A DNA stretch of 63,662 bases, the filler included, from Stramenopiles sp. TOSAG23-6 (Eukaryota), in the NCBI GenBank assembly GCA_900128565.1. It is 7 parts of 7 records of this genome, joined end to end, with 100 filler letters (N's around TTAATTAATTAA, not from the genome) between each part and the next. Parts side by side here need not be neighbours in the genome. Positions count along the whole stretch, not along the records: positions 12,161 to 24,215 come from LT636221.1; 6 more parts are not named here. The stretch is one strand, 5' to 3'. A model generated the notes under the pieces. It was given only the letters and a program-made list of their open reading frames with translations, ran no database searches and was not told the origin of the DNA. Shown here in pieces: positions 6,357 to 62,069 of the stretch. A program made the translations under genes and the position numbers. The stretch's first letter is position 1, and each line of letters starts with the position of its first letter.

Positions 6357-7605
6357 TTATCCTAGACTAAGATGCTGTAGACTTTTATCCGTGACCCAAA
6401 TATTCATACCATATTTCGTATAACCCTCTTTTATAATAGGCTGAGCTTCATGAACTGTCAAAGGATCAGCTTCATTGGGTCGTTTATTTCTTACATCCAA
6501 ATTTGAAAAAAGCAAAGCCTTACGAGCAATAGGTTGCACGGCTAAAATTGGTTCAAGTGCGGGAAATGCAGTGCAGCCACCAGCCTCAGGGGGTAAATCG
6601 TTGAGATAAACAAAAAAAGTAGCCAAACGTCGAGGAGGTACTATTGGACCACATTGGCCATTTTCATCAAGGGAGCAGCAATCATATATCGTAAAAAAAT
6701 ATATTGTTTTTTTGTTAGGTACAACATTTCGTATGAAAAAAAAATTGAAATTCATGATGAAAACATACATGATGTACGTTAAACTTTTGACCCATTGTGT
6801 AGCTTACAATTTGCAATGGTTCAACATTTTGAGGTGGTACACCTAATATCTCTGCTGCTCGTCTTTCAACTGCTCGAACAACTGTGTCTTGGCCTTTTTT
6901 AAGAAAAATAAACCGAGATGTTCTGTCACTACTCACATGAGAAGCTAAATCATCATCTTCCGTAAAGGAACTTTGAAATCTATTTTTTTCATTCGTAATA
7001 ATGGAACGCAAGTGTAACAACTCCGATTCTGTCAAGAACTCATCAATTGTAAATATATTTGGATTTTCTGGTGCTGGTTTTCTAGACACCAAAGATAGCG
7101 TTCTCCGCTTTGCTCGTTGAGTTAATGGTTGGGGTCGAGAAAATAAGTTGATAAATCTAAAAGGAAGGGGTGGAGTTTTAGCAGATGATCGTCGAAGATG
7201 CGCTCGATGATTTGGTTTTTCTATAGTACTATTTGGTGTCTTACCTTGTGAGTCTGGTGTGTCTCGAGGTCTTATAGACGAAATTACTACACTTGTGTCT
7301 TCACTTCCATCATCAAAAAGTAAGTTATATGTCCAATTACCCTCTGACAAATAATTAATATCAATGATTGTAGCTGGAAAATATGCCTTACCGTATTCTT
7401 CACTTTCCCCACAGTTCCACATTGCCTCTACAAAATCACCAACTGAAAAGGTACTCGGAGGAGTGTGCATTTCTGAGGTTTTGTTTGTAATAATGCTTTC
7501 GCTTGAAAACGAAACACGTCGGCGCTTTGCGTTGCTCTCTAAAACAGTACTAATAACATTCTCTTTGATGGACCCAATATCATTTTCACTTTGAATATGC
7601 GACAT
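6357..7605 (-). CDS. Prolyl 4-hydroxylase-like 2OG-Fe(II) dioxygenase with N-terminal Tudor-like domain (intron 6684-6768, GT-AT)
   Basis: RTS, EPLQIVSY, HH|D motif restored across the intron, RLATFFVYLND, GGCTAFP, HEAQP, KYGMNIW. Confidence 0.88.
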
Positions 7606-8056: not shown

Positions 8057-10992
8057 TCAAAATAAACCAACAATTTTTCCTGATTCATAATCAAAATCAA
8101 TATCATAAAAACCTGGTCTCGTTGGAAGTCCAGGTATCGTCATGATCTTTCCTAATAAAGGAAATACAAAACCAGCTCCAACATTACACCTTATTTCTTT
8201 CACAGCTACGGTAAATCCTGTGGGAACTCCTTTCTTCTTTGGATGTATTGTAAAAGAAACTTGTGAAAAAAAAATTGTTAGGTACAAATTTTTCATATAA
8301 AAAAAAAAAAAAAAATTCTGAAAAAAAAAACATACATCTGTGCTTAAACTCAAATGTGTTTTTGCTATACATATCGGAAATTTCCCCCACCCTTGCTCTT
8401 CATAATATTTTATCGTTTCAGCAACATTATCAGGTATTTCTACACCATCAGCTCCATAAATTTCTCTCGCAATGACTGAAATTTTTTCTTTAATGGGCAT
8501 ACATTGTGAAAAATATTTTTTGTTTGTTGGAAAAATCGTTAGGTACAAAATTTTTATAAAAAAAAAATCAGATTTCAAAAAATTAAAACGTACATGCACA
8601 AAGGATACAAAAATTTGAATCCTGGACTGTTTTGATTCGTTGATCGAGACATTGCACAAACAGACGCAACGGCAAGGCCTAAGTCAGTTGCACCTGCGCC
8701 CCCTGTATTTTGAAAAAATATTTCAAAAAAAAACTAAAATTTGTTAGGTACAAAATTTTTATAAAAAAAAATTTCGAATTTTTTGTAAAAAAAAAAAATA
8801 AAACACACCTTGTGCCCAATGATTTGAAAGAATTGCATGTCCTGCTCCTGCTTCTAAGGCAGCTTTACACACAATATCAATTTCAGAGTTAGTATCAGTC
8901 GCAAATTTATTTACAGCCACAACAGGTGTTATCCCAAATTTCAAAGCACTTCGAATTTTTAGTGTCAAAAAATAATTAACAAAAAAAAAATTGTTAATGT
9001 ATGAATTTTTTTTTAAAAAATTAGAAAAAAAAAAATTTTAGGTACGAAATTTTCTATGAAAAAAAAATAAATTTAAAATTCATGATGTTATACAACGTAC
9101 ATGATGCTGAAGATTACAAACTCCTGCTCGAAGCAAGTCCAAATTTTCTTCTGTGTATTGCGATGCAAGAGGGGTACCGGGTTTCACAGGTGGGCCACCA
9201 CCATGCATTTTCAATGCTCTCACAGTGGCTACAATGACAGCACAGTTTGGGATTAGTCCGGATTGACGACATTTTATATTGAAAAATTTTTCCATTCCAA
9301 TATCAGCACCAAAGCCACATATTGTGAAAAAATATTCAAAAAAAAAATTGAAATTTTTTAGGTACGAAATTTCGTACGAAAAAAAAAATAAATTTGAAAT
9401 TGAAGAGAACAACGTACGCACTCAGTGACACAAAATCCTTCGTCGCCGACTAATTTCAACGCTACTTGATCTGCAACAATGGAAGAGTTGCCATGAGCAA
9501 TATTTGCAAATGGACCAGCATGAACGAAAACATTTGTTGGACAAAATATTTCAAAAAAAAATTAAATTTTGTTAGGTACAAAATTTCGTATGAAAAAAAA
9601 AACCCAAAAAAAATGATTATGGAAATATACAGGTGTTCCTTCTAACGTTTGCATCAATGTTGGCTTGATCGCTTCTGCCATCAATACTGTTAGAGCTCCA
9701 CCAGTACCTAAATCATCAGCTGTGATAGGTTCACCAGATCTAGACTGGCCAATCACCATTCGACCTAATCGATCTCTCATGTCTTCTACTATATTGTGAA
9801 AAAAAAAAAGTTTTGGAAAAAAAATCGTTAGGTACAAAATTTCGTACGAAAAAAATTAAATTTAAAATGAATTGTGAAAACGTACATGATGTGGTCAATG
9901 CCAATATAGCCATAATTTCGCTAGCTACAGTTATATCGAATCCTGTTTGACGAGGTGTACCTTTTTTTTCCGTCGGAGACTCACCGACAGTTATAGATCG
10001 AAGATGTCGATCACAAGTATCAATGACTCTTTTCCAAGTGACTGAATTCGGGTCAATATGTCTTGTGAGAAAATATATTTTTTTTAATTTGTTAGGTACA
10101 AAATTTCGTATGAATTGTTTTAAATGTTTTTAAAATGTTTATAAAATGTTTTTTACATTTTTTTTACGAAAAAACAAATAATACATTACAATTAAAATTA
10201 ATAATGAAAATATACATTCAAACGAGAAAAAGATGTGATTTCATCAGGTGTTAAATTATCAGGATGAGTTTTTTCTATACCAAGTTTTTTTAATCTTTTC
10301 AGCATTACAGGAGAAAAATGACGAGAACCATCTTTTTTTTTTGGACATAAANGTCGAAACAATGCTGCATCCGATTGAGTATCCTCGTGGTACATTCGAG
10401 TATCGATCGCAGCAGCAAGTAAATTATTGGCAGCTGTAATGGCGTGTATGTCACCAGTCAAATGTAGATTAAATTCCTCCATAGGAATAACCTGCGCATA
10501 GCCACCACCCGCAGCACCGCCCTTGATACCAAATGTTGGTCCTTGTGAGGGCTGTCGAAGACAACAAAATACGCGCTTGCCCAGATGTGCGCCTAATGCT
10601 TGACAAATACCAACAGTAGTAGTGCTTTTACCTTCACCAAGTGGTGTTGGATTGATCCCAGCAACTACAACGTAATTACCTTCAGGAGAATCTTTCAATC
10701 TGTCACGAATATCAAGACTCACTTTTGCTTTATATCGGCCATACTGCTCAATTTCACAGGGAAGAATTCCGGCCTCACGAGCGACTTGATTAATGTGAAG
10801 AGGTGTCACACTTTGGGATACTTCAATATCTGAAGGGACAGGCTCAAGGCAACGAAGTTCTTCCCTCTGGGAGACTTCATTATTCTCTGCTCCAAAACAT
10901 AAAGCGAACTCAATTAACTTTTCCCGATCTTCGTAAACACCAGCTTCTTTTGCTAAACGGGAAATATTTCCAACTTGACTCATCATTTGCAA
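8057..10992 (-). CDS. FTHFS: Formate-tetrahydrofolate ligase, 9 exons (introns 10058-10215, 9789-9885, 9532-9630, 9317-9417, 8957-9100, 8703-8808, 8499-8593, 8243-8335)
   Basis: [69 protein letters not shown]; conserved motifs restored at each junction. Confidence 0.96.
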
Positions 10993-12007: not shown

Positions 12008-12060
12008 GTATGTTTTATTTTTTTTTCAATTTCGAATTTATTTTTCATACGAAATTTTGT

Positions 12061-12865: not shown

Positions 12866-14576
12866 ATGTTTGGTATGTCAGGTGGCATCGATACACTTCA
12901 AGTGGCTCGAGACCGAGCTCGTATGGAGGAATCGGGAAAGTTATTTGACTGGCAGCGAGAATTGCCTCATCCCCGTGATATCTCAACTGGTGGGACAGGA
13001 CCTTTAGCAGATAGAGTTGCTACTATACATGCAGATCAGAAAGCAATTTTACGTGCTCATATAAATGCTTTAGGTCCAAGTCAACAAGCTGCACTTCAAA
13101 ATATAAAGAATAAATATTCAATACGAAAGAAGTTTAGAAAAATTGTAAAGAAGAAAATCAATATGGAATTACCACCTGAACCCTATGGGGAGTATTGGGG
13201 TGTATCAAAAGGTGCTATTCTCACAGACAATGACCCATATGGATTAACTGGTATTTGGGATAAGCCATCAGGTGATGGTTTAACATCTGTATTAAAAGCA
13301 TTAATGTTAATTATTAAGCGAGAAATGATGCAACAGGGAGTTGAAAAACCATTTCAATTACCACAACAAGCTCTCTCCGCTGCTTGCAAAAATTATTACC
13401 CAGATAGTGTTTGGGACGAAGATAAAGATTATTTTGTCCAATTACGACATAAAGCAGCTAGAGCTGCCTTTCAGAAACAACAGGTAAAATCAGGAAGTCA
13501 TAATAATTTTTGTCATCCAGATAAAATTCTCTATGCATTTGATAGGAAATCAACTACTTCAAATAAATATGAAAAAAAAGCAAAACGTATGAATCGAAAA
13601 AGTTTTCTAGGTGTATTAGAAAAAGAACTCCTCATTGGTACAGCTTTACCATTGATACAAAAAGGAACAAATAAAGCGTTAAACTGGCAGAAATTACAAC
13701 ATAGAGCATGGAAATATCGACGTCAACGCTGTGCACATTTGTTACATACTATAGAAAAAGAACAAAAATTAGAACTGGCACGTCAAAAAACTTTACAATC
13801 TGGACAATTTCGTTCTGCGGATCCTCAAGTCATACTTGATCAACAAGTAAAATATGCCAAAGAACGTGCTGAAGCGGCTGATAAATGTTTACGAATATTA
13901 CAAGATTATGGACTAATTACTGCAACAGAAATGTACGTTTGATATGAATTTCTAATTTATTTATTTTTCATACGAAATTTCGTACCTAACGATATTTTCA
14001 ACTAAACTTTTTTTTTCACAATACATGGCTTCATACTTGCAACATACATTAAAAGGATATAAGATAGAATCTAGTACAATGGATGATGATTCTGCAAATA
14101 TGAGTATGAATCAAGTAAAGAAAGCAAAGAAAAATGCTGATGCTATGGTTCATGCTGAAGTCGCATATCTTCGACAATGTCCTGAAATGAAATATTGGAG
14201 ACCAAGTGAAGCTGCATTAGCCAAGTTTAAATCTCCAAAACCACCTCCATTAACTGCTAAAGAATTAGTGCCTGACTTGAAAAGTTTTGCTGGAATTGTT
14301 TTTGCACAGAAAAATTTAGAATATGCAAAAAATCCTGCACAAATTAAGTTATATAATAGACTTACAAAACGTGGAATATTTCATGAAAATCTTCCACCTT
14401 TGTCTGTTCACTTACGAGATGGTGTACAAAGTGGATATTTAAAAACAGGAAAGACTTATGCTGGTCTATTTGGTAGAGGTTTAGCTGAAATCAGTGGACG
14501 ACGAATTCACAATGCTAGAAGTAAACATATTGGTTTATTTGGAGCTATACCTGAAGATTCATATAAAATTATTTAG
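12866..14576 (+). CDS. Hypothetical protein, 2 exons (intron 13933-14026, GT-AT)
   Basis: Removing the intron joins ORFs 12866 and 14025 in frame (GAA AT|G GCT). Confidence 0.75.
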
Positions 14577-14688: not shown

Positions 14689-17477
14689 TTATCCTTCAGC
14701 ATTAATTCCTTCCCATAATTGAGAATGAAAGAAACCACCATTACCTTTCGTTGTTTTCCGTGCAATCATTGCAGTTCTCTTCAAACTCTGAACTAATTCA
14801 ACATTTGCTTGTAAAAACGAAGGTTCATGGTAATGAATCTTGTGCTTTGCACATAAAGCACGTGTTAATTTTCGTGCTTCACGAAGATTATGTCGAGGTA
14901 AACGTGGCCATAAATGATGTTCAATTTGAAATTGTAAACCTCCATGAAACCAATCCATTGCAGGTGAACACGAAACATTCATTGTTGTTGCAACTTGCAT
15001 TTTAAACCATTCATCACTATCATCATTATATGCCTGACCATGATACGTTTTCATTGTAAAATGGGAAATACATATTTGTACATGTAATATACCAGCTAAT
15101 CCATGGGATATTAAAAGAAATGCAACACGTTGGAGCCATGTATCACCACTACTATATACCAAAGGAAGCATCCAACCATGGAAAAACAATAATGAAAGAA
15201 AAGACCAAAACCTCCATGCGACTTTTTCTTTTGTATCACATAGCAAAATAAATGATTGAATGTATAAATTGAATCGTGCAACTCCCATTATAGGATAGAA
15301 CAAGTAATGTTGATACGATACAAGAAACCGTGCAATAGAATCCATTATCATATGTTTTTGATGATATGTTGACCAAAATCCTTTTGTATCATCAAATATC
15401 TTTTCATCAACTGCAAATACTGGTAAATGTTGAATATCTGGATCATTTTCAACAGAATTACATACAACATGATGTACATTATGTGACCGTTTCCACCAAT
15501 TTAATCCAATTCCACCAGATGTATTTAATAAACACAAACCTGCCCATTGATCACGTTCACGTTCATGTGAAATACTAGAGTGTCCACAATCATGACCAAC
15601 AAAAGCAATTTGTTGCCAAAAACAAGCTAAAAAAAAAGCACCTACCAGTGAGGTATGAAATCCGTCACAAAATAGAGTAAAATATATAACTAAACTAAAT
15701 AACATTATTAACCAAATGGATAATATAATGTAATAACTCGCATTTGTTTCAAATAATCCTCTGCGTAAAAGAATTTGACGAATTTCACGATGTTCCTTTG
15801 CAAATTCAGACTCTTTATAATCAACTATTTCACCAATGTAATAAGAAGGAAGGAGTTTTTCATATACTCTTGCTGGATGTATTGTAAATATATATATATA
15901 TGTATATTTTTGTAAGTTAAAATGTTTTGTGAGGTACGCAATTTCGTACGAAATTGTTTTTTTTTTGAGATTTAAAATTTGAAATGAAGACAACATACAT
16001 GATAATTAGCAAATGCATCAGTTACATCTTTACCACCTAAATTTACCAATGGAAGCCAACCTCCAGGATGATTATCAATATATTTTGTAATATCATACGC
16101 TTTACCTTCAATACATATCCATGTAATTTTGAATAATATTTCAAACATTTGATATTTTTTTGTTAGGTACAATTTTTTTTTTTTTTTTTTTTAAATTTAA
16201 ATTTTTTTTTTGTATAAAAAAAACGGACATAAACTCTCACGAGAATTATGTTTAGCTACTTCAGCCATAGTTATTCCTTTTCCATTTCGACTAGCAATGA
16301 ATGCTTTTGCTGCTTCAACTTTAGCTTTTCTATAAAACACAGATGGCGCTAAAACCGCTTTGCCTTCTTCTTCTCTCCATACCATTTTAGGGTTAGGGTT
16401 AATACCACCATCAACTTTTGAAATTCCATTCCTATTATTTTTATGATTTTTTTCATTTTGAATTTTATTTAATCGAATTTCTTGACGTTTTTGTTCTTCC
16501 ACAGTAGAAAAGACACTACCACTATTCTTATCATGACTCTTTGCAAGTCGTGCACTAACAGTTGCAGTCCGTTGAGTCGTTCTCTTCAAATCTAATTGTG
16601 TAAGGCAAATCTCTCCAATGACACAAACAATTAATCCTCCACATCCACCAACTAATGTAGCAGTTAGCATAGGTAAACGGGCAGCAGTACAAAACGAATG
16701 CGACGAAGAAATCAATAATAACCAAGAAACAGTTTCTACGGCAGATCTAATAGTAAATAATTGCCAATTATCAGCGCAATGCACTAGTCGATTATGAACA
16801 ATGGATCCAATGACACTTGTTGGTGTAGATAATAAGCATAGCTGACTCAAAGTGACTAAACAAACTGCCGCTAAAAATGCTTGTATTACAGGATTAATAC
16901 CGATACGATTTGTCATTGCAAAGAACAAAACACCAACTAGACACCACTGTTCAGGGGCGAATAAACCTTGAAAACGCCACTTTTGAACTAATGACGAACT
17001 ACACAGGAATTTTTGTGCCGAAGTACAAATTGAAGTCAAAATGTCACCTGTGACTAGTAAGGCAATCCCACTAGAAGCACCACCAATGTATGTTAAACAA
17101 AACGAATTATATACACTATGAAGTTTTACAGAGACATATATAAAGGACGACAACTCAACAAACGACCGTAGTGCGTTGTTCACCCAATTGTATTGCATTC
17201 TAGTTACCCTATCCAGAATAATATGAGCTGGATGAGCACAAATACCAAGATACTCAAACATGATACCAATTAACATTAAGAGAAGACAAGTGAAGAGAAC
17301 TGTACCAATTGTTTCAAAATCATTGGGAGAGGTAAGTGTAGTTGGAAGAGCCAAGATGGCACAAACAGGGCCAAAGACCTGCGGACGACTTTGCAGCAAT
17401 TCAGTCAAGTTCGATTTTCCAGTAGCAGAGGCTTCAGCCTTTACCGGAGTAGAATGCGCACTCTTTACTTTTGCCAT
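14689..17477 (-). CDS. Cytochrome b5-fused front-end (delta6/delta8 sphingolipid-type) desaturase with long N-terminal membrane extension (introns 16121-16228, 15877-15998; both GT-AT)
   Basis: HPGG haem motif; HDCGH, HNVHH and QIEHH His boxes; KHNSRESL-W and ANYH|P restored across introns. Confidence 0.92.
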
Positions 17478-19068: not shown

Positions 19069-21062
19069 TTAAATAGCTTCAGTAGGTTTTTGTATAACTT
19101 CCATTAATTTTTCCAACATTTCAACATTAGCCATATTACTTTCTTGTAAATGTTTAAATCTGTCCAATGGTAAAGATTGTAACTTTCTTACTTTTTGGAC
19201 TTCTTGACGTAATAATGATGCATCTGCTTCCAATACAAGAATTCGTTTTTCTGCTTGTGCCAATTTTCTGCGACAGTTTTGTTCTGCGACTTCAAAACGT
19301 TCTGCATTTGTTTGAGCAGTTCTGTGTTTTGTATGTAATTCTGTATTTTCTCGGTCTAAAGTACTACATTGTTCACGATAATCACGTGTTTGTTGCTCTG
19401 CTTCATCCACTCGGCGACGTAATAATGCATTTTCCTCTTGAGCTGTTGCATGTTGAACTTCCATATTCGTTTGAGCATCTCTAGAAACACGAAATGCAGC
19501 AGTTATCTCAGCTAAGGCTACTTTATTCATTGCACTATTATTCTTTACAATTCCATGTTCACGTTGAAATAATTCATGTTTTGTGAAACAATATTTTTTT
19601 TATTTTTTTTTTTTAGTAAAAAAATCTACAATTAGGTATAAAAATTCACACTAAAAAAACATAAATGATAAACACGTACATGTCGTTTTCCTAGATCATC
19701 ATGTTTATCCAAGGTACTTTTTAATTTATCAGTGAGTTCATTATTTTTTTTTTCCAATTCAACATTAGTTTTAACCAATTCTGAACAATCTTCTTGTGCC
19801 TTTGTAGCTAACGCTTCAAACTGCTCCATTTTCTTTACTGCTTGTCTTTTTTCTATCTCTGCTTTATGTAAGGCAGATATAGTATTTGTTAATTTATTGG
19901 ACGTGTCAGTTAAAATCGATTCAGTTGTCAATAATTTATCTTTTATTGTACTGTGTTTTGCATGAACTTCTGAGTGTTTATCACCAATTTCATCAACTTG
20001 TTTCTTTGCAACATTTAAATCTAATTCAAATTGTTTTATCGTTGCATGTGCTTTACGTAACTTTGTGCTGTGATCTGCGTGTGCTTCTTCAAGCCGAGAT
20101 GTGGCACTACTCAATTCACTCTGCACTGCACTCATTTGTGTTTCCAAGGCTTGCGCTCTTTTTCTTGAAGCAATGTTACCATGTGTTTTTTCTTTCAATC
20201 TTTTTTCTAATGATTGTTCACGACGAAGCATATCTTCTTTATGTGCTTCCAAACGAGCTTCCCATAATGATAACTGTTCATTTTGTGCTTGTACTAATAT
20301 AACCTGATCACGGACTTTTTTTTCCATTTTGAGTCGATCATCTCGTTGCTCAAGACGAGCTCTATCATACGCCGCTTGTACATCCGCTAAAGTTTTACCA
20401 AGTGAGACAGATGCACCTGGAGCTTTTTCTCGAGTATCTGATATTGGCACAAGTGTAGAAGGCATTTTTGGAACCTTGAAAGACGCTGATGGAATATTTA
20501 CAGGAGGTAAACTGTTGGAGTGTTGAGATGGTTCTGAGAACGAAGGCATTGTTGGGGGTTCTGTTTCTTCTTCTTCCCACGAAGTTTCAGTTTTATCTAC
20601 ATTTTTTGTTTCCACTTTTTTCTCTTCTTGTACAACTGAAATAGATTCAACGGAATGTACATTCATGCTTATGTCACTTGGAATTGCACCACCAACTTGC
20701 TGTTGTCGAAGAACAGCACACTCCATCTCTAATAAGTATATCTGTTGGCGAAGATTATACGTCATTGCATTAGGACTCTCTGATCCTGGTGCAAGATCAT
20801 CCACAGGACTCACATTTTTTGGTGCAGATGTCTTTTCAAATTTATAACCTTCTAAACCAGAAGCTATATCAAGACCAATACCAGCTTCAGTCATTTCACG
20901 TTTTAACTCTTCTAAAGCATCCGTCCGTGGGGAATCACCTCCTCGACGATTTGAATAACCATTACTCTTTGAAACTTTATTCTTTATCTTTCTATTTGAT
21001 CGTGGAGGCCGATACGATCCACGAGAAGAATTGCTGCGATGTTTTCCATTCAACTGTCGCAT
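19069..21062 (-). CDS. Long coiled-coil protein, 2 exons (intron 19576-19679, GT-AT)
   Basis: Removing the intron joins ORFs 19632..21062 and 19069..19530 in frame; heptad-rich. Confidence 0.78.
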
Positions 21063-22404: not shown

Positions 22405-23432
22405 ATGCCTGCATATAAATCAGAATTTTATTTACTCCTTCGTTACGTCTTTTACACAGTTTATTTTTGGCTTCATCTGTTATGGATTCGTCTTAATTTG
22501 TGGCTTAGCCAGGCGTGGGTTCCAAAGACAACAGATATTCGACACAAAATAGTAATTATTGGTGATGGTTTTGCTCTTGGCGTTGGCGATTCCGTCATTA
22601 TGGGCGATAAAGCTGGTATATCATCAAAATTAGAGACAGTATTGGCGCATGAGAGTTCTGTTAGACAACAGTGGATGGTTCTTAATCGAGGCCACTTTGG
22701 TGCTACTTCTGCCGACTGGTTACCTGGGGAAGACGTTGGCAAACCGCGTAAAGAGTATGCAGCAGGAGTATCAAAGTCACTATTCAAAGATACATTCGAA
22801 TCACGCCGTTTCTCTGATGCTGAAATTGTTATTGTAATGGTAGGTTACCACGATCATGAAATAGAAGCCTTAAAAGATCCAGAAATTACCCGTAAGAACA
22901 TACAAAAAATTGTGTCTAAATTAATTGAATTGAAAAAACAAGTATTTATCATGGGAATACCTGAAGTAAGACGATGTAATAGCTTGGGGAAAACAACAAA
23001 GGGTAATGTTGGTGCTCCGGCATTATTATGGAATCGTGAAAGAAATAGACTAGTGAGTCAATACATTAAAAGATGTACGTTTTCAAATTTGAATGCTTTA
23101 CCAATTTCAAATTTATTTTTTTTTCATACGAAATTTTGTACCTAACAAAAAAGATCAAAAAAACAATATTTTCCTACAATACATGTAAAGCCATGAAACT
23201 TCCACTTGATTTTGTTGGAGTCAGTCGATTCACTTCAAACAAAATCTTTGGATTTGATACAGTTCATTATAATTCTGTAGGATATAAACAAATTACTTCT
23301 ACACTTTTCAATGCTTTAACAAAAAGTATAACAATGGTTGAATTTGCCACGTGGCGAAAGAAAATTACTCCTGAATTTTCAATTTTGGAGGAATTAGAAA
23401 AAACAAATTCAACAAAAGTAAAAAAATATTGA
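22405..23432 (+). CDS. SGNH/GDSL hydrolase-like membrane-anchored protein (intron 23075-23184, GT-AT)
   Basis: IVIIGDGFALG block I, NRGHFG block II, DTVHYN block V. Confidence 0.75.
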
Positions 23433-23600: not shown

Positions 23601-24125
23601 CTATGAAAAACCATGTGACATTAGCCAAAGGGCAACATTTGGCCACATATCTTCTTCACATTCATCTCGATCAAGAGAATGATTATCTTTCGGATACCAT
23701 AATAATCGAGTTATACCTATATTATGAAAAAAAATTCAAAAAAAAATCGTTAGGTACAAACTTTCGTACGAAAAAAAAACTAAATTCGAAATTGAAAAAA
23801 AATAAAACATACTTCCATTGGCACGTAAACAATGATAATATTCTAATCCAGTGGATGGTGGAACTCTGAGATCTTTTGCACCTAAACAAAGTAATACTGG
23901 TGTTTTTACATTTGATACATATTTGATAGGACTTGCATCATACATTTGTTGCAATTCTGAAGATGTTGGTGCATGATACTTTTCAAAATTATATGGTAAT
24001 CCTGATTCAACAAAACACCAATCAGGAATATCTGTCGCACCTGACATATTTGCAATATTACAAACAGGATTACGTAATGCAGCAGCTTTAAATATATTTG
24101 GATATTGACCAATTAAATGAGCACC
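23601..24125 (-). CDS. APEH: Acylaminoacyl peptidase (S9C), C-terminal part (intron 23717-23812, GT-AG; 5'-truncated)
   Basis: HLIGQYP, RNPVCN, TDIPDWC, SPIKYV..VKTPVLLCLGAKDLRVP, YPKDNHSL. Confidence 0.88.
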
Positions 24126-24366: not shown

Positions 24367-24488
24367 GTGACGCATTTGAATTAAATGTAGGCTGTCCACA
24401 GCGTGTTGCTCGAAAGAAAAAAATTGGTGCATATTTAATGCGAGATCCCGAACGTTTGATTTCACTTGTAAGTTTTCAAAATTGAATG

Positions 24489-24527
<39 letters not shown>

Positions 24528-25658
24528 TTTTTTACCTAAAAATTTTTTTTTGTACCTAACAATATTTTTTTAAGATTGTATATTTTTCCATACTACATGT
24601 ACAATCTGTTTCAAGAGCTCTGACTATACCTATATTTGTAAAGATACGAATTCTACCAAATATCCGAGATAGTATTGCATTAGCACAAATGTTGGAACAT
24701 GCAGGTGCTAGTGTGATTACTGTTCATGTATGTTTTATTTTTTTTTTTTTTTACTATGAATTTTTTTTTTTGAAAATATTGTACCTAACAAATTTAAGTT
24801 TTTTTTTTTGAAATATTTTTCCAAAATACATGGTCGGATTTTACGACCTGGAAAGGGAGGTAAAAAAGGTGGTGATATCGCTGCAGATTGGTATGCTATA
24901 AAACGAATTCGTGAATCGGTTGATATACCAGTGATATCTAATGGCAATGTTCGGTCATTGGATGATGCGTTAGCTAGTATTGATTATACAGGATGTCATG
25001 GGTGCATGTCTGCATGTGGTCTCTTGGCCAATCCAGCTATATTTTCAGAAAAAAACACGAATATAACAAATATAACAAATATAAAAAATACAACAAATAT
25101 AAAAAGAATACATTCAAAATTGGAATATACAATACCAACTGAGATATCTGGAGTTCCCATTTTGCCATTAAAAGAACGTTTATCATTATGTATAAGATGT
25201 ATGTTTTATTTTTTTTTATTTGAAGTTTTTTTTCTTACGAAATTTTGTACCTAACAATTTTTTTTTTTGAAATATTTTTTCAAAATACATACTTAATCCT
25301 ATGTAAAAAATATCCAGATGATGCTGATAAACGTTGTATTAGTAAACATTTATTTGCGATAATGAAGAATAGACAATGTACCACAAATAAATCTTGTGAA
25401 GTTGATGAAGATGATGATTGTACGTCGACAAGAAATAATTTTATATATATTTTTGATACAATTCATTCTAGTATACATCAATTCCAAAACAAAAAGAATC
25501 CAAAAGAGGACAAAAAAGGACAAAACAAAAACGAAATTCCAGAAGCAAATCAGTGGGAATCATCATTAGGTAGTAGCAATAGTTGTATGTCGATTGGTTT
25601 TCAATCAGATTTGATACATTTACAGAAAATATTTGAGAATTTTTTGAGTGAACTGTGA
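24367..25658 (+). CDS. tRNA-dihydrouridine synthase (DUS1-like), 5'-truncated (introns 24468-24598, 24728-24831, 25199-25290; all GT-AT)
   Basis: LNVGCPQ, GAYLM, VKIR, TVH|GR, ADW, IPVISNGNV motifs. Confidence 0.9.
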
Positions 25659-30300: not shown

Positions 30301-33069
30301 TCTTCACTATTTTCAGAGCAATTTTTTTTAGGTGCAATAATATGCGAAAAAGCAAGCGATGCACCATAATTGTGCCCCATCTTGCCACCTAGACCCAATT
30401 TGGTTCCTGGGGCAACATTTACACCTATTGGTTTCAATGATGATAAATATACGGGAGGTATCGCACCGGAGCCTTCAACTTTTAATATTTTAACACTACG
30501 ACTACTGCCATAAAAACATACGGCGGGAAATACTTCTCCAAAATCAGACATGTTTGTAAAAGCAATACCTTGATCTTCATCATTAACAAAGTACCTCATT
30601 GTCCCAGCCTCCATATCTAACTGTATCTTGATGATATCATCTTTGTAAATTCGTTTACATTTACGACCGTGGGCAACTCCTCTACAATATAATTGTCCAT
30701 TATATGCGCGATACATCCAAAGATCAGGAGATCTCTCGTAACCATGATTAGTGACAGGTTTTGTTGCTGCTCCAAAGCATGTACATTGAGATGTTGTGTC
30801 CTCTGTTAATTGCATCTCCCACGTTGCACTTCCACTACTGAACCCTATATTGAATAAAACGGAACAATAACTGCCAGTAGTGCAGCGGACAACTGTAGAA
30901 TTTTCAGATAAAATTAAACCTGGATGACTCAAAGACTTTGAATCAAATTTAGCAGAGCTTATGAGACCAGAAGAAGAATGATTTGCACCCCGTTTGCGTT
31001 GTGCTGCTTCAAAGATTTGAAGTTGACGAAATTGCTCCTCGGCGTACACTCCAAGCTCACCAATAAACTTACGCGCACTGCTATCTTTAAATACACCATT
31101 AGTTTTTTCGTAGTATTTCGCAGCCCAACCTACATGTTCCTTTAATTTTGATGATTGGCCACTTTTATCTTCTTTTATTATTGAATTACTATTTGAGTCA
31201 GCTTCAACAAGTGTAATCAAAAGTCTCAGTATAGTGACAAATGATCCAGATGCAATAGCTAAATTTGAAAGACATGTTAGCGCTGCATCTTGTATATCCG
31301 AATTTAAATGTGTCGAAAATGCTGACATCCATCGGCGCAGAGACTTCAGAGTCGTGATACTACCATGATTATTTTGTTGCATAGTTGATAGTTCAGTAGT
31401 GAAATCTGTTGCACCACTCATTGTTTCTGTATCATATTTTTCAAATTCATCCGCAGAATTTTCACCTGGTACTTTTTGCAACGAGTGATCATGTTGGCTC
31501 AAAATATGACGCAGGATATCAGACTTACTTGGAGGTAACGGTCGTCTTCTCAGCTCTATATATTTAATTGCATAATATCCATCTATATTGTCAGGGGCGA
31601 ATCCTTTAAAATAAATTCGAAAATGTGTGACTGTTTGTGGTTCTCTTAGATGTGTAGGTACTATTTGATATTCGGTGCTTTCTTTAACATTCCGTCCAGC
31701 ATCAGAAATATTTACATTTTCATTTTTTGCTTTGCTATGAAACTTTTTAAGTGTACTTCGGCTATTTTTTTCTAATCGAGGCATATACAAACGAAAGGGC
31801 TCTTCTCGTTTTGTTTTTAATTCCTGTAGAGTGATACAACGTATTGGGGTCCACACCTTTCTACCTGTTGAAACTTCACATATAATTTGTTGGGGTAACC
31901 ATTTAGTCTCCCAAGTAAAAGAAACTGAAGTTAATACGCATGGATTTCCTAAAAATGCACCCCAGAAACAACGACCTGATGGTTTGGATGAAGACCTCCA
32001 CATACCAGAACTAGCAACAGCATTTCCAGATGCGTTTGATGGACTATGTGTGTGAGATGCAAACGTACATTGTTGCAAAATAGGAATAACTTCGTCTACT
32101 GGTTCAATTGGAGGGACCCAACCACTAAATAAACCTAGAGGGCTGATTTTTTCAAGGACGCTTCCTGCAGAATCCAAGGTTGGCTTGAGCGCGTTGCTAT
32201 CATCACATTTTTCTATACAAATATTGTCTACTAAAGTACCTAAGAATTCAAGACCGATTTCCCGTACTTGAACGCTACGAGACGCCTGTTGAAGTCTTCT
32301 AGTTACGTATAGTGTTGCCTCTTCTCGATTAGAATTCATTTTTATACACAAATCCTGTAGATTTGAAGCTAACGCAGCATGACCATAATTAACAGCAACG
32401 TTAATAGGTGTGTTTTGAGATTTATCACGTAACATTACGTTTGCGCCGTGGAGAACTAGTAACTCTGATTCAGCTGAGCGTCCATTTGCACAAGCAACAT
32501 GCAATGCTGTTGAGCCGTTCGGCATTGAGGAGCGCATATGTGTTGTGAAAAATATTTTACATATAAATTCGTTAGGTACCGAAACTCGCACGGAAAAAAA
32601 ATAAATTGGAAATTCAATTTTGAAAACGTACATCTATATCCGCTCCAGCGTTCAACAAAAGCACTACTATGGCACAACGAGGTCCAGAACCAGGACCACA
32701 TGCTGCATGTAGGCATGTCCAGCCTTGAGCTGGTTCACTATCAATATTATTAGGTATTTGCCACTCTGCTTGGGAAATAGGCGAAGTAGGATGCGGCACA
32801 CTTTGAGACTTTATATCGAGGTCATTAGTCACTGAGGTGATTGTATCCGATGTTTCTGTTGTTTGAGAAATTAATTCATCTGCTACATTTGAGCCTGGAG
32901 GCTCAGATGGTGTTCGAACTTGCATCCGAAGTCGACATTCTACAGACTGTTGTAGAAACCTTTTCACACTCTCTAAATCTCCTCGCCGGCATGCTTCAAA
33001 CAAATCAAGCCTATCTTGCCACTTCATACGCTGCTCCTCTGAAAGATTTGTAGATAATATAGGAGCCAT
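27381..33069 (-). CDS. Large ankyrin-repeat + SPRY + NPCBM-like domain protein (intron 32538-32631, GT-AT)
   Basis: GWTCLHAAC, AGADID|MR, GSTALHVAC ankyrin repeats; SPRY (WMYRAYNGQLY, LDMEAGTMRYFVN..QGIAF, FPAVCFY); FEVWGDGELLW NPCBM-like segment. Confidence 0.8.
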
Positions 33070-33636
33070 TATTTAAATATAATGTTTGAATGGAGAATTC
33101 AAAAGGCGTCACGATATAGACAAAATCAAGTCTACACTACAAAGAAGATCTTTTTATTGTTCCTACTATTTTTTTGAATTACGAATGTACTTTTTGAATT
33201 CAATTTTTTACAGTTTCGCGGAAGTTTCGCGGCGCACGAAATCAATCGAAATAATCGAAATCTTGTGGGTGGAAATCGCGTCACTCGCGCCGCTAAATGT
33301 TAGGCACAAAATTTCGTACAAAATGCGCGGGCTGGAGGAAACTGCGGGGAGCGCAATATACATTCGAAGAAGTTAGAGAAAAGAGTGTGTCATTCTTCAA
33401 GATTTCAATTAGATTTCTTCCCCTATCTATCAAGGAGAAGAAACTATAGATTGTTACGACTTGAGCATGTCCAATTTGTATTATTGATTTTCTTTTTCAC
33501 GAAATGGAAATGTATAAAAATAAATTACAATTATGAAAGACATTTATATTGGTTTTATTACAAATCCGATATCAATTTTAGATAATATTCGTCAATTAAT
33601 AGTCAAAATACTGAAGCTTTTATTTCAGTACACATC

Positions 33637-35639: not shown

Positions 35640-36319
35640 ATGGGAATAAAATCGCTTCTTCAAGTGCTTGACTCTGCTTCAGAACGTCGGCATGTAAGTG
35701 AATATGTTAAAACTAAAAGTAGACCAACCCTTGCGGTCGTTGATACTATGTGCTGGTTACATCGTGCATGTTATAGTTGTGCCACAGAACTTGCTCTAGG
35801 TAAACCAACTGACCGATTTGTTCATTATTTTCTTCGTAGGGTGAAATTGTTGCGTTTAGCTGGTGTTGAGTGTGTTATGATTTGTGATGGTGCTAGTCTC
35901 CCTTCAAAGAGGGATACACAAATTGAGCGTCGAAAACTTAAGAGTGAACAACGTTTGAAGGGAATCGCCCTTTTAGAGCAATCCAAGCAAACCAACGATA
36001 ACACAAAAAAGAAAGCTCTTTTGAAATCAGCTTACGAGGCCTTTCAAAAGTCTATTACAATTACTCCGAGAATCCTTAAGACTCTCTTTGATACACTTTC
36101 TGCTCACGGAGTTCGTCATATATGTACGTTTTCATCATGAATTTATTAATTTATTATTTTTTTGGTACGAAATTTTGTACCTAACAAAAAAATCAAATGT
36201 CTGAAATATTTTTTCACATCATATTTGCACCATATGAAGCAGATCCACAGTTGGCGTACCACACTCTCGATATTGTCTCACAACAATGGAAAGCTGATTT
36301 CATTATTACTGAAGACTCA
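35640..36319 (+). CDS. EXO1: Exonuclease 1, N-terminal part (intron 36124-36224, GT-AT; truncated in next intron from 36320)
   Basis: MGIKSLL, DTMCWLHRACYSCA, DGASLPSK, APYEADPQLAY, ITEDS. Confidence 0.92.
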
Positions 36320-36856: not shown

Positions 36857-39444
36857 TTTTCTTGACTTGTAGATCGAACTAATGACATACCTCTATTTAC
36901 TTTACCATTTTGAGATTCCTTTTCTTTGATGCCACTAATTGGCTGTACTGCTTTTTCTTGAGATTGCTCTGTACGACCAAATGTGAAATCAGATACAGAC
37001 TTATTAAGAGCATGTTTTTCTGGTTTTTCTGGCTTAGAAGAAATCGATTCAGCAAAACTATTCTTTTTGACACTATCTAATTTTGGAGCATCACTAAATT
37101 TAAAATTAGATATGATTGAGGATTGATCTTCCAACAAAGTCGCATTTGTTACATGGATCACTGGAGCATTTGAAAATGTAAATGAATCCTCTGAATTTGA
37201 TGAATTTGATGTTGACATATTTAGAAAAGATGATGATTTGACATGTGAATTCGAATGTATCGTCGTTTTTTCATGTTTTGTATTTTTTTCAAAACTGAAT
37301 GAAAATTCAGGTTTTTTCTTTTCGTCGACAGTTTGAGTAAAAGTAAATGAAGAATTTTTTCTTGTTGCGGCGGCGGAGGGTACAGATGATTGATCATTTC
37401 TATTATTATTATCATTTTGAATTTCATATTTATCAAATACCTCTTTTGTATTATCCAATACCGGAGGTTTTGAAATCGAATCACTTGAACGTTGTTTCAT
37501 ATTAGGCAATGAAAAAGTTAATTTTTTATTCGTTTTCACACCATCTACAACATTTTCAACTACCTCTGGAGAATAAAATAAAGGTTTTGAAACAGTATTA
37601 AAATTCGAATGTACATTTAAATGTACATTTATACCATTTTTCGTACCTAACGAATTTCGAATTTGCTGAGACTTTGCCTGTTCCGTTTTTCTTCGAATAG
37701 GAGCATGTATTTTGGAAAAATATTTCGAAAAAAAAAAACTAAGATTTGTTAGGTACAAAATTTTCAAAAAAAAAAAAATTAAATTCGAAATTAAAAAAAA
37801 ATCGTTAGGTACAAAATGTACTATGAAAAATAAATTCAAAATTGAACAAAAAATAAAACATACAGGTGTTGCAGTATTAGCGTGAATATTTTTAATTTCC
37901 AATGAAACATTTGGTAATTTTTCCACTTCTTTTACATCATTTTTGGAATTATTTCGTGTTTTGCCTTGTCTGACTTTAATAACAGAACCTGTAACACCTT
38001 TAATGCGTTTTTCATTAGAGGGCGGAACAGGAGCTCTTTTGCTACGTGTCACTTCAAGTGGTGTTGACATTTGCTGTAAAGCGGAAAGAATTGAGTCTCT
38101 GATCTTCATTGCTTCATTGGCTTTTTTGGCTTTTGTACTACCACCAACCCTACCAATAGAATTCGATTTCAAATTATTCGTTGCTTCTGTATTGATATCA
38201 CTCAAATTTCGTATACCAGGAGTTGTTCCAGTTAGTAAAGAAGAAGGTCGAGATCGAGATTTATTTTTTAATGAAGAGTAGCGATATTTCGTATGAGATT
38301 TTCTACTTGAACTAAGTAAAGCTTGTTCGGACCAAAAATTTTCATGACCAAATCCTGTTTTTTTTACTGAACTTAATCTACTCTTTGAAATAGTATTTTT
38401 ATGCAGTCTTTGCAATTTAAACGCACGGGGACGAATTTCAGGCGAATTTGCAAAATCAAAATCACCATATTTTGTTGCTGTTTTTTTTGTAAATCTTTCA
38501 CGTTTCCCTCCTACTGTTCTATCCTTAGGGTTGGGGTTATTATTGATATTTTTACGATTTGTTGATACATCTACATTTTCATCATTACAATTTGAATTAT
38601 TATTTAAATTATTATTTAAATTATTATTTGAATTTGAGCCAAACACAAACATCTCATTTGAATGTACATTTGAATGTACATTTGAATGTACATTTGAATG
38701 TACATTTAGATTATTTTGATTATTTCGTGCATGAGATGAAACTGTACCAAACATACGAGGTAAAGTATTTTCAGCATATTGATGACGTCTTTCCCCAGTC
38801 ATCAAACCAGGATAATATCCCGGTACCATAGCAGCAGCTGGAGTGTTAAATCTATTTGTTGAAGTGTTTGAAACGACCATTGGAGTCATCGAAATATCCA
38901 TACCTATAACTCCTCCATTTGTATCGGATACAGCACCATATCTATTAGGGTTAGTCGGTTCAATATACCCCCGATGATACCCTATCGTAGGGTTAGGGTT
39001 CATACTAACACCAAACGGTGTTGCATAGCGATACGATATTCTATGTTGTTGTTGTTGTTGTTGTTGTTGGCATTGGTGGTGGAGGTGTGGCGCAGGAGCA
39101 GGTGTCGCTAAACACATTGGTGTCAATAAACGATGTCCAGGCGAAGTTTGTGTATTAACTTGTTGTCGGATCCTCGAGTCATCTCTATGAGTAAATCTAC
39201 GTATTACATCAACTGGGGTAAGATGTTGCTGAGGATTCCCATTTGATATTATTTGATTATTCGGAGCAACGCGCGTAAAAGATGGACGTACTAAAGGAGT
39301 TTTTTTTGTATGTAATCCTACGGGTTTCGTACCTAACGAATTTCCAATTTGCTGAGTGTCATCATTTTCATTTATATGGATATTTTGTTGAGGGTCAGGG
39401 TTTAAGGTCTGAATATTCTGTTGATGCTCTTGAGATTGTGATAT

Positions 39445-39478
<34 letters not shown>

Positions 39479-41626: not shown

Positions 41627-44278
41627 ATGGGAGAACCAAAATCTTTTCCAGATGAACCATTAAGTGTACAAACTTTGGCCCTTCATATAGTAAAAGAGCA
41701 TTTTGGTCCATTAGTGGAAACTGTTTGCAAGGGGTTGGCACAGTGCGGACTCATCTCCTTGACTGCATTGTTGGGAAAGTTGCGTCGGTGGACACCGTCT
41801 TGGGATCGAAAAAATGTTGTTCATATACTAAGTTTATTGTTACAGCATAATTTATTGGATGTTCAACAGCGAGCGCCGTATAAAGATGCTATGGGTGTAA
41901 TACAACACCCTCCAGTATTGTACGCATTCCGTTCTCGTTCTGCTGTGCATCGTTTGCGGTATGCAAAACTTCTCTACCACATAAAGAAACGGTTTGGTAC
42001 TGATGGGGAAATGCTATTATATAGACTTCTCTTTAATGGAAGAGCACAGGAGTCTCGGTTATGTGAAGAAGCATTTGAGTATCTTGATCGAGTAAAAAAC
42101 CTCAAAGTCGATTCTACTTCTGAGAAAGATGCAAATCTGAATTCTTCAACAGTAAAGAAAGAAATGAATGAAGATAACATCTCACAAGAAAGAGAAGACA
42201 GACTTTCCTCGTTACAGGATGTATTTCTTGAGATGGTATCAGAAGGGTATATCCAGCGTGTTGAACGTTTAGATCTCTTGAAAACAAAAATTTCTAAAGG
42301 AAAGAAAAAGAAAACAAATTCCAAATTGAAAAAAAAAGTGAAAAACTCAAAAAACTCAAAAACTAAAAAGAACTCAAAAACTAAAAAACGGTCAAAACGC
42401 AAACGTGCTCAAGGTCTTGGTGAAACCAGCTCGGATGAAGAGTCTTCTCGTAAAGCACCTAAAAAACGATCTCGAATGCAATTACGTGGTGTAAAAAAGG
42501 AAGATAATGATGACATGTATGTTTTAGTTTTTTTTCAATTTTTTGTCTACATTTTTTTTTTTTTTTATAGTAAATTTTGTACCTAACATTTTTTTTTTGG
42601 TACATTTTTAAATATTTTTCCAAAATACATGCTACAATCAAGTAGTGAAGTTGACCTAAGTAATATGATGGGGCTTTCTTCTACATCATCATCAAGTGGT
42701 CTATCAAGTGGTGAGTATATTTCTAAAACATCAACAAACACTACATTGAATGATTCACGGAGCAATGCAGATTCTTTTCAAGTCTGTCTTCCCCGTTTTA
42801 CTCGTGAATTTAGTATGTTTACTCCCAACTATAAACCCTAACCCTAATTCCATATTGATAAAAAAAAAAAAAAAAAAAAAATTTCATACGAAATTTTGTA
42901 CCTAACAAATTTTTACTAAAAAAAAATTGAAATATTTTTCCAAAAAAAACATTTTTTTTTTCATACGAAATTTTGTACCTAACAAATTTTTACTAAAATT
43001 TTTTTTTTTGAAATATTTTTCTACAATAAATGAGAAATTGCATTAAAAAGTTGCACAAAAGAATCTGAAGGTAAACTCTCTTCAAAAGTAGTTGGTTATA
43101 TATTAGCTATGCGTAATGCTCAAATTGCAGAATCTGATCGAAACTTTTGTGGTTCCCGCGGCTTTCAATTTGATGGTCGTAGTGTATTTGATTACATCAA
43201 GAATGAGAACCCTAACCCTAGTTGTACGAAAGGAAACCCTAACCCTAATTCTTTGGAATTCTTTGGTGAAGATTTTACATATCGAAAGTGTCTTCGTATC
43301 CTTGATTCTTTATCAAAAGGCCCTTATTCAATACTAGAGAAGGCATGTAGTTTTAGTGAAGATTCGTATGTTTTCATTTTTATACGAAATTCTGTACCTA
43401 ATGTTTTCATTTTTTTTTTTTAAATTTTTTTTAAAATTTGTTGTATACGAAATTCTGTACCTAACATTTTGTTTTTTTGTTTAAAATTTTCACAATTCAG
43501 GAAAGATAATGATCAATATTGTGGCGGAAATTTCTCATTTGAGTACAGACCTGCTTTAGATGCACTTATCAGAGATACAATAGAAGATATTATACTACAA
43601 AAATATGTATGTTTTATTTTTTTTAATTTTTTGTCTAAATTTATTTTTTCGTACGAAATTTTGTACCTAACAAATTTTCAAATTTTTTTTTGAAATATTT
43701 TTCTACAATATATGGTGTGCAGAGCAAACGTGTTTTCCGTTTACTTCTTGAATCTCATTATTTAGAAGTGAGAGAAATTAGTATGAAATCATTAATTGGT
43801 GTAAAAGAGACGCGTGCGATATTATTCCAATTATTCTCAGCTGGATTTTTGAAATTACAAGAAGTTCCTAAAAAATCTGATCATGAATGTTTTATTTTTT
43901 TTTTTTTTCCGGTAAAAAAAAAATCGAATTTTTTTTTTTTGAAAATTTTGTACCTAACAATTTTTTTTTTTATACAAAATTTTGAAATATTTTTCCAAAA
44001 TACATAGCCCACAATCAACTTTATATGTCTGGTCTATAGACCAAGCTCAGTTGATGATTCGTCTATCTGCTGATATTCATAAATCTATATTTAATTTACG
44101 AGTACGTAGACAACAGGAATGGGATTCAAATGAAGCACTAATTGAACGACACCAGCGACGATTAATATCAACTGCGAGAGATAAACAAAAATTTCTTCAT
44201 TTGGGTGGTATCCTTCGTCAATTAGATTCAAGTATACTACAATTGGATGATACTTTGATGCTTCTTGTTGATTTTTAA
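41627..44278 (+). CDS. POLR3C: RNA polymerase III subunit RPC3/RPC82, 6 exons (introns 42517-42630, 42813-43031, 43366-43500, 43607-43713, 43885-44005)
   Basis: EHFGPLVETV, LLLQHNL, RLRYAK, LLFNGR, KY|G..RVFRLL, LQEVPKKSDH|SPQSTLYVW, QLDDTLMLL. Confidence 0.9.
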
Positions 44279-60752: not shown

Positions 60753-62069
60753 ATTTCAAATTTTGTTACAAAAAACGATGATGGAAAACAAATTTCAAAT
60801 TTTGTTACAAAAAACGATGATGGAAAACAAATTTCAAATTTTGTTACAAAAAACGATGATGGAAAACAAATTTCAAATTTTGTTATAAAAAACGATGATG
60901 GAAAACAAATTTTTTTTTCTGATAGTGAACAAAATGACATATGTAACAAAAGTCATGAAAAAAGTCATGAAAACAGTATTATTGAAATAAAGAATGATTC
61001 AAGTCACCAACAAAATCAAAATCAAAAAAATCAAAAATATCAAAAAAATCAAAAAAATATCGCAATTGAAGGTGAGTTAATCCTCATGAACACGAAATCT
61101 TCATTTTCTCAAACACAAAAATCACGAAAATCACGTTTTTCAATTCAATCTTCTTTATTTTCTTTACCATTATATGCAACTTCAAGTTGTGGTAGTTTAT
61201 TTTCAGATTCAAATCGAAGTTCAATATATTCAAAAAAACGTAGAAAAAGTAGAAAAAGTAATATTTCAAATAACCCTAACCCTAGTAGTCTTGATCAAAA
61301 AATTGTATGGTGTTCATTACACCGAAGATTATTAAAATGTTATGCCCAAAAAAATGATACAAATCCAGAAATAGTGATTTATGTCGGTGCATATTTTGTA
61401 AGTAAATGTATGTTTTATTTTTTTTTTTCAATTTTCAATTTATTTTTTTTTGAAAATTTTGTACCTAACAAATTTAATTTTTTTTTTTTTTTTNAAATAT
61501 TTTTCCAAAATACATATAATAATTCAAATAATTCAAATCATTCAAATCATTCAATACAAAAGAATAACCCTAACCCTACTCTGAATTTCGGATTTAGTTT
61601 ATTCCCAAAAAACGTCCCAAACACGAAAAAAGGAGAAATAAATCAAGCTTCGTATCAATTTCGACTCTCCGATGAAAAAATGTGTCAAAAATGGATATTT
61701 GCATTACGTAGTGCAGGTGTTGGTCATGGTAAACAATTTGATACAGAATATGTATTATTAGAATTATTAGGTGAAGGAGCTGAAGCCATTATTTATACAT
61801 GTCAATTACGAGACAGGTTTGTTCCAAAAAATCAAAAGAATTCAATTCGAGCTGTTCGAATTATTGATAAACGCAGAATGACGTCATTAAAACTTGCCAA
61901 TGTTCTTTCTGAAATGGATATTGCAAAAGAAGTGAAACATAAATATATCGCACAATGTTATGATATTTTTGAATCAAGAAATTATATTCATTTGGTATTA
62001 GAATTTGTTAAAGGGAAAACATTATTGTATCAAATGATGAAAAAAAGAAAAAACAAAACACTTTTTCAT
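60753..62069 (+). CDS. PH-domain + CAMK-like protein kinase, internal fragment (in-frame intron 61408-61515 GT-AT; next intron from 62070)
   Basis: Frame open from contig start (39-bp repeats); PH helix QKWIFALR; LGEGAEAII, HKYIAQCYDIFES..IHLVLEFVKG. Confidence 0.8.

Follow-up and report, generated by a model that had tools for sequence, protein, structure and literature searches.

Why should nearly every intron in a stretch of protist DNA carry the same extended branch-point-like motif, and what fixes the end of introns that mostly do not close on AG? The question is raised by a locus in Stramenopiles sp. TOSAG23-6 (assembly GCA_900128565.1), which we examined within a window of 63,662 nt, the whole stretch of DNA analysed, made of seven parts of seven records. 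A first-pass annotation had reported a branch-point-like motif fused to a 16-bp palindrome at positions 13965..13991 and had claimed that almost every intron carries it. The motif is indeed present, its focal copy lying at 13970-13990 within that interval, in an intron with the following borders (a slash marks an exon/intron border throughout):

13970..13990 (+): focal motif ATACGAAATTTCGTACCTAAC, consisting of a putative branch site TACCTAAC, the upstream extension AAATTTCG and a left arm ATACG
13933..14026 (+): focal intron, 94 nt, at/GTACGT..ATACAT/ggc (GT..AT); only this 3' offset class leaves at least 182 codons open to either side

We find that these introns are truly spliced although most of the curated ones end in AT. 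The motif is probably the branch-site module of a group of spliceosomal introns, ~105 nt long, introner-like and similar to one another, from the nuclear DNA of a marine protist.

Counted over both strands of the whole window, the 20-mer TACGAAATTTYGTACCTAAC has 38 matches with at most three mismatches, 11 of them exact, where dinucleotide-preserving shuffles give an expectation of 0.03; a few of these matches are palindromic sites counted a second time from the opposite strand. We curated 30 introns, of which 10 were defined by homology and 20 were located from their donor, motif and 3' block together with the reading frame; several analyses (AG skipping, BLASTN and the donor tally) cover only the first 27. 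Across the 30, the conserved unit is the right-hand 16 nt of the motif, AAATTTTGTACCTAAC (positions -14 to +1), which is shared by 25-30 introns at every position, with CCTAA invariant or near-invariant (29-30/30). The left arm (CATACG, -20 to -15) is weak, at 13-23 of 30 introns per position, and TACG occurs in the left arm of 16, so the RTACG left half that had been presented as general does not have that status. In 29 of the 30 introns, 31-56 nt (median 41) separate the putative branch adenosine from the 3' end, in good agreement with the roughly 30-55 nt first proposed. The description of the motif as branch-point-like is supported by a CTAAC whose A is invariant, by the strength of the GTAYGT donor upstream and by a 3' end at this distance downstream.

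Ten introns could be fixed by protein homology alone. In the minus-strand gene for FTHFS (formate-tetrahydrofolate ligase, 8060-10992), two homologues were mapped by tblastn and the junctions taken from the sequence, which gave eight introns within a 2-kb coding sequence; two more come from a desaturase gene, and all 10 junctions agree with homologous proteins to the codon. RTACCTMAN is present in every one of these motif-independent introns (8/8 in FTHFS, 2/2 in the desaturase), which upholds the claim that nearly all introns carry the motif, and all eight FTHFS introns contain GTACCTAA(C/A). Sequence words of the FTHFS region were also found in seawater polyA metatranscriptomes (19 runs from 10 studies, shares 0.05-0.19). 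RNA contigs from four runs (3 studies), aligned to 6001-12060 with a minimum likeness of 90%, splice six FTHFS junctions as the protein model predicts, four of them GT..AT, one GT..AG and one GT..GT; the contig pieces that match the FTHFS region differ from the window by 0-3 letters. Introns 5 and 6 had no clean joint among the RNA contigs of the four runs. The ten introns are:

10058..10215 (-): FTHFS intron 1, GT..AT; homology and RNA joint X2, ambiguity 2 nt; skips an AAG 4 nt before its end
9789..9885 (-): FTHFS intron 2, GT..AG; homology and RNA joints X1, X2 and X3, no ambiguity
9532..9630 (-): FTHFS intron 3, GT..AT; homology and RNA joints X1 and X3, ambiguity 3 nt
9317..9417 (-): FTHFS intron 4, GT..GT; homology and RNA joints X1 and X7, ambiguity 1 nt; a GC..AT reading is excluded because a letter of the mRNA would differ; holds the sole perfect 16-bp palindrome
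8957..9100 (-): FTHFS intron 5, GT..AA; homology only; its long 3' part holds a further, degenerate branch-like site
8703..8808 (-): FTHFS intron 6, GT..AG; homology only
8499..8593 (-): FTHFS intron 7, GT..AT; homology and RNA joint X2, ambiguity 3 nt
8243..8335 (-): FTHFS intron 8, GT..AT; homology and an X7 RNA contig in two pieces; passes over a CAAG that lies 17 nt short of its end
15877..15998 (-): desaturase intron, GT..AT; branch variant GTACCTCAC; homology junction ..ANYH/PARVY..
16121..16228 (-): intron in the cytochrome b5 part of the desaturase, GTCCGT..ACAT; homology junction ..RESL W/ICIEG..

An AG at the 3' end, the usual criterion for a U2-type intron, is missing from 26 of the 30 curated introns. 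The terminal dinucleotide is AT in 23, AG in four, and GT, AA and TT in one each (the TT end is uncertain); position -2 is A in 28 of 30, while position -1 is T in 25, G in four and A in one. Five of the six RNA-verified FTHFS junctions have non-AG ends. An AG stands between the branch site and the true end in 12 of 27 introns, including RNA-verified FTHFS introns 1 and 8, and since these nearer AGs are passed over, AT is a preferred end and not a fallback. The earlier suggestion that splicing is AG-independent is supported by GT..AT and GT..GT junctions in RNA contigs and by skipped AGs. Reading frame agrees: at least 30 codons are open on both sides of the motif-defined end in 30/30 introns, as against 4/30 at each of the offsets -2, -1, +1 and +2, a test that is not wholly independent because some 3' ends were chosen using frame. 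The last exon base is T in 24 of 26 non-AG introns and in one of the four AG introns (Fisher p=0.009, small numbers), a link that fits both pairing of an exon-end AU with the intron-end AU and insertion of an element at AT sites. In the published literature, supplements aside (these may hold relevant tables), we found no account of introns of this type and none of GT..AT as a majority intron class. AT-ending, AG-independent splicing outweighs in importance the palindrome that had first drawn attention to this locus, which was overstated.

How might such ends be recognised? The curated introns have a median length of 105.5 nt (range 85-219) and a GT donor in all 30 cases, with GTATGT (13) and GTACGT (9) the leading hexamers among the first 27; on the exon side of the donor, A at -2 is found in 24/30 and T at -1 in 25/30. 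Their consensus runs from GTAYGTTTT through a T-run, a loose AATTTNNAATTTA block and a second T-run to the branch module, followed by AAATTT with a third T-run and finally GAAATATTTTTYCAMAATACAT/ at the 3' end. Three conserved blocks recur in each intron: a yeast-like donor, AT/GTAYGTTTT with its exon flank; the branch block AAATTTTGTACCTAAC, whose CTAAC would provide the branch adenosine; and a 3' block, TTTTTYCAMAATACAT/, that closes the intron ~41 nt past the putative branch A. Excision is exact at the end of the 3' block, as seen in both RNA contigs and protein homology. Splice-site choice would then be set by the branch module together with the 3' block and not by a scan for AG. Upstream of TACCTAAC, eight further conserved bases most likely extend the contact with the branch-recognising small nuclear ribonucleoprotein, and this longer contact could be either a small nuclear RNA (snRNA) duplex or a protein contact of the SF1/SF3 type. 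More speculatively, the 3'-terminal ATACAT may dock on the exon end and donor, AT/GTAT.

The likeness among these introns extends well beyond their splicing signals. In an all-versus-all BLASTN comparison of the first 27, 239 of 351 pairs match at E<1e-5, against none for shuffled introns, and the 15 best pairs listed share 75-85% identity across 107-122 nt. This similarity spans the full length of introns from unrelated genes and takes in stretches that are not evident signals, such as CAATTTTTTGTCTAAATTT, yet are shared by introns of different genes. Variants at the two ends are linked as well: position +10 (A/C) is associated with position -8 (A/C), ~95 nt away (table [[4,9],[10,0]], p=0.0016, 24 tests), and since these links join the same base, which is impossible for base pairs, they point to subfamilies of whole elements. 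RNA contigs, too, jump between introns by way of the shared motif. With full-length similarity across unrelated genes and linked end variants, these introns come under the working definition of introners. Both findings lend support to the proposal of a mobile intron; the dyad that was proposed with it as a protein-binding site is not supported.

One such jump was seen in a metatranscriptome contig that passes 3.1 kb backwards, from 9850 to 6736, between two introns through the shared motif; unspliced intron sequence is thus present in the RNA data, and the repeat confuses RNA assembly as well. Two ~30-nt copies of TTTCGTACCTAACGAATTTC(G/C)AATTTGCTGAG, at 37640-37670 (+) and 39325-39355 (+), resemble the branch module plus a AATTTCGAATTT block and lie antisense within a 1605-codon minus-strand open reading frame (ORF, 36415-41232); they may be exonised fragments of the element or a protein repeat. 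Beyond the window, a 16-mer of the motif had 28 single matches in viral contigs, which is chance level, and a 20-mer had no match in metagenome contigs and one in genome contigs (a Bacteroidales metagenome-assembled genome, with flanks that are not intron-like), where ~1 is expected by chance. A gapped donor-plus-branch pattern gave 47 single matches in metagenome contigs, none intron-like, and one recurrent freshwater sequence that is unrelated.

Several points weigh against reading these introns as a mobile family. For their putative mobility, no transposase was found among the window ORFs scanned with Pfam, and neither an autonomous element nor a clear terminal inverted repeat or target-site duplication was found. 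An AT/..AT/ repeat does flank 20 of the 30 introns (AT closes the exon in 22 and the intron in 23), but the marginal frequencies of the two AT preferences can account for it, the identity of exon and intron ends not clearly exceeding them. Strong constraint from an altered spliceosome could also make introns alike, and if essentially all introns of the genome are of this type, a single 64-kb window gives little means of separating an introner family from the organism's own intron rule. The CTAAC branch site is a candidate chosen for its likeness to the consensus and its distance from the 3' end. RNA support is limited to one gene, FTHFS, and comes from assembled metatranscriptome contigs at the 90% minimum likeness.

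Other readings place the explanation in the splicing machinery. In eukaryotes the part of U2 snRNA that pairs with the branch site scarcely varies otherwise, and that it has changed here so as to match GUACCUA(A)C, with AAAUUUU beyond it, strikes us as unlikely, although a long co-evolved duplex would fix the branch, free the second step from AG and be compatible with the introner reading. Conservation at 16 positions, far beyond the normal 7-nt branch site, argues for such a duplex, as do the dispensable AG and the variants T/C at -8 and -9 and G/A at -7, which would be compatible with wobble pairing. Conservation alone, however, cannot tell RNA pairing from protein contact or shared ancestry, and relative to the usual U2 a full 16-nt complement would need many changes, where known precedents have one or two. 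An Rfam scan of the window returned no snRNA gene and, at gathering score, two tRNAs only. Co-evolution of snRNA and branch site does have a reported precedent in Physarum U12 (bioRxiv 10.1101/2020.10.12.336362), and a further case is reported for Entamoeba (bioRxiv 10.1101/2022.06.08.495308). A broader combination, which we hold to be possible but still on the unlikely side, has a rewritten 3' rule in which joining follows A-U (ACAU), a co-evolved snRNA duplex and the 3' block together place the site, and the intron family has spread; the snRNA could form a long duplex with the 16-nt branch block, and the 3' block, complementary to AU/GUAU, could dock like an internal guide. It is improbable that minor-type machinery has instead taken over most introns, as it has in part in Physarum. 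Transformed U12-type-like introns would account for donor and branch blocks that are long and rigid and for a last base that is free, and TACCTAAC is identical to the U12 branch consensus TCCTTAAC at 6 of 8 positions. The donor is nonetheless the yeast-type U2 donor GTAYGT and not RTATCCTT, differing at +5 and +6, and T-runs resembling a pyrimidine tract follow the branch site. U12-type and Physarum introns do likewise combine long rigid donor and branch motifs with tolerance of GT-AT and other non-AG ends (bioRxiv 10.1101/2020.10.12.336362), but the branch there lies nearer the 3' end, 9-12 nt from it in Physarum and within a general limit quoted as ~45 nt, than the 31-56 nt seen here.

The palindrome invites two further explanations, which share much of their evidence. 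That it works in RNA, either as a hairpin GUACGAAAUUUCGUAC that presents the branch site or through a CGUAC arm that pairs with donor GUACG and brings the donor beside the branch site, is the most doubtful of the readings considered here. Perfect copies do fold at -5.4 to -6.5 kcal/mol, CGUAC/CAUAC is visibly complementary to GUACG/GUAUG, and in 20 aligned introns 78% of cells could pair in the 5-bp stem. Yet the commonest variant (TTTTG) reaches just -1.2 kcal/mol, and fold energy is 0 for the TAGT and TTGA subfamilies; the central C-G pair is broken in 8 of the 20 aligned copies; covariation in the stem does not exceed that of shuffles, 52 of 500 of which reach its score; RNAalifold found no consensus pair in the 20 aligned whole introns; and on inspection the choice of CATAC or CGTAC is independent of GTATG or GTACG. 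The window holds a single perfect copy of the 16-mer GTACGAAATTTCGTAC (9362-9377) and two of the 14-mer, contrary to the claim of a 16-bp palindrome in almost every intron; with a single 16-mer, and TACG in the left arm of just over half the introns, the palindrome is not general to introns. A DNA-level dyad, bound or cut by a transposase or another protein that moves the intron, is also very improbable. It would suit a repeat family with the palindrome near the middle of the element, with short inverted repeats ATGTAT/ATACAT at its ends (84% of cells pairable) and with two partial antisense copies in a coding ORF; on the other hand, the left half is the least conserved part, which implies that the dyad is not under selection in the present copies, there is no transposase-like ORF among those scanned, and copies with clear context all lie in sense orientation within introns. 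The complementarity of the intron ends (exon AT plus GTAT against ATACAT) is a property of the consensus, for the terminal helix has no double changes and no covariation in excess of shuffles. With its least conserved arm, broken pair and shuffle-level covariation, the palindrome stands neither as a dyad nor as a hairpin and is not a maintained element: the right arm is part of the branch block and the left arm a subfamily feature. It is a by-product of two self-complementary words, GTAC and AAATTT, and of a left TACG that matches in one subfamily.

Three related ideas were tried and dropped. Two pairings, one between the 3' CAAAA and the branch block's TTTTG and the other between donor GUAYG and CRUAC, were abandoned as the variants do not co-vary on inspection. 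An origin as a foldback element or miniature inverted-repeat transposable element was rejected, the intron halves not being complementary and the T-runs lying on the same strand in both.

How do these introns compare with known kinds? Yeast-type U2 introns follow the plan GUAUGU ... UACUAAC ... YAG, and those of the window share with them the donor GTAYGT, a TACTAAC with one extra C, and a branch-to-3' distance of tens of nucleotides; they differ in the A-T end, a branch block that reaches 8 nt further upstream, a ~16-nt 3' block and high intron density. With the introners of Micromonas, Aureococcus and many other marine protists they have in common sequence shared over the whole length between unrelated genes, their own splice signals and a marine host. 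The introners described are GT-AG, whereas 26 of the 30 introns here end otherwise: canonical GT-AG is reported for Micromonas and Aureococcus (PMC7789003), and the splice sites accepted in the methods of another study agree with this (PMC12130899). The introner elements of Amoebophrya (Farhat et al. 2021, PMC7789003) are likewise repeated introns of a marine protist with non-canonical ends, short direct repeats across exon/intron borders and complementary intron ends, but they are described there as having inverted repeats of 8-20 nt, highly variable borders and no fixed donor, unlike the invariant GT (30/30), the inverted ends of ~6 nt and the strong CTAAC branch block found here. Non-conventional introns of euglenids and diplonemids, which are reported to lack a conserved GT and to rely on extensive end-pairing (PMC12621601), also fall outside the GT-AG rule and have ends able to pair; here GT is invariant and RNAalifold finds no pairs. 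A mirusvirus origin was rejected, mirusvirus introns being reportedly GT-AG in their overwhelming majority (PMC12768974) and the genes of the window ordinary nuclear ones.

Few features of eukaryotic introns are as constant as the AG at their 3' terminus. With some three quarters of its sampled introns closing on AT, and RNA to support this, a free-living marine protist of this kind would be a natural experiment on recognition of the site in the second splicing step and, if the interpretation is true, would show the extent to which snRNAs, Prp8 and U2AF-type factors can drift. It also bears on how intron-generating elements can insert without harm, in that an element able to dictate its precise removal with no AG needed could settle at many sites. 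Gene finders bound to GT-AG would mis-build nearly every multi-exon gene of this organism. A single-exon HGPRT gene, 25807-26457 (-), has a 100% identical entry in the public protein collection (EukProt source), its nearest named protein being from Rhodomonas. Best public protein identities for FTHFS and desaturase pieces are 71% and 61%, with the nearest named proteins from oomycetes and Dictyostelium for the former and from Cymbomonas, Incisomonas, Triparma and Florenciella for the latter. The closest relative is represented by proteins labelled g####.t1, at 66-71% identity. That HGPRT was found and the multi-intron FTHFS and desaturase were not may be a weak hint that GT-AG gene models fail here.

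Apart from the focal intron, the introns curated by donor, motif, 3' block and frame are listed below, that at 6684..6768 by motif and frame and that of the XPG_N gene with Pfam in addition:

6684..6768 (-): intron, GT..AT
19576..19679 (-): intron, GT..AT, degenerate branch site TATACCTAAT
23075..23184 (+): intron, GT..AT
23717..23812 (-): intron, GT..AG
24468..24598 (+): Dus gene intron, GTAAGT..ACAT, two branch modules
24728..24831 (+): Dus gene intron, GT..AT
25199..25290 (+): Dus gene intron, GT..AT
32538..32631 (-): intron, GT..AT, motif variant CGTGCGAGTTTCGGTACCTAAC
33258..33361 (-): G+C-rich variant intron, 3' end (TT) uncertain
36124..36224 (+): XPG_N gene intron, GT..AT
37705..37863 (-): intron, GT..AT, two branch modules
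42517..42630 (+): intron, GT..AT, left arm TAGT
42813..43031 (+): intron, GT..AT, two full branch-plus-3' modules and a CCCTAA-like stretch
43366..43500 (+): intron, GT..AG, two branch modules
43607..43713 (+): intron, GT..AT
46844..46948 (-): intron, GT..AT
47522..47627 (-): intron, GT..AT
47780..47885 (-): intron, GT..AT
61408..61515 (+): intron, GT..AT

Four of these introns (24468-24598, 37705-37863, 42813-43031 and 43366-43500) carry tandem branch modules, and in 42813-43031 the whole unit from branch to 3' block is doubled, which suggests internal duplication or nested copies. Telomere-like CCCTAA units, AACCCTAACCCTAA and ACCTAACCCTAA, were noted in or beside introns at 42813-43031, ~49340-49400 and ~59870-59930.

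The window is eukaryotic nuclear DNA, and its ORFs encode Pfam domains that include C2, EGF, IQ, Dus, phosphoribosyltransferase, HMG box, XPG_N, kinase, LSM14, RPC82, fatty-acid desaturase and FTHFS. The six 100-nt spacers between its parts, each N44-TTAATTAATTAA-N44 (12061-12160, 24216-24315, 36371-36470, 48522-48621, 60653-60752 and 62158-62257), all adjoin intron sequence, with a donor running into the gap or a motif or 3' block after it; the assembly seems to break at these repeated, T-rich introns.

A large inverted duplication pairs 48000-50940 with 58330-61520 around a centre near 54640, with ORFs and introns mirrored and the same tRNA in both arms, at 50866-50938 (+) and 58336-58408 (-); it could be a real palindrome or a chimera of assembly or amplification. 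Within ORF 36415-41232, a 12-nt tandem repeat GAATGTACATTT is present in ~4 copies at 38656-38711, and three weak microRNA-like matches (E up to 1) from the Rfam scan fall on it; these sub-threshold matches are probably meaningless. Finally, a BspA-type leucine-rich-repeat protein, of a family best known from Trichomonas, Entamoeba and bacteria, is encoded at 44410-45696 (-) (PF13306, E 2e-106).

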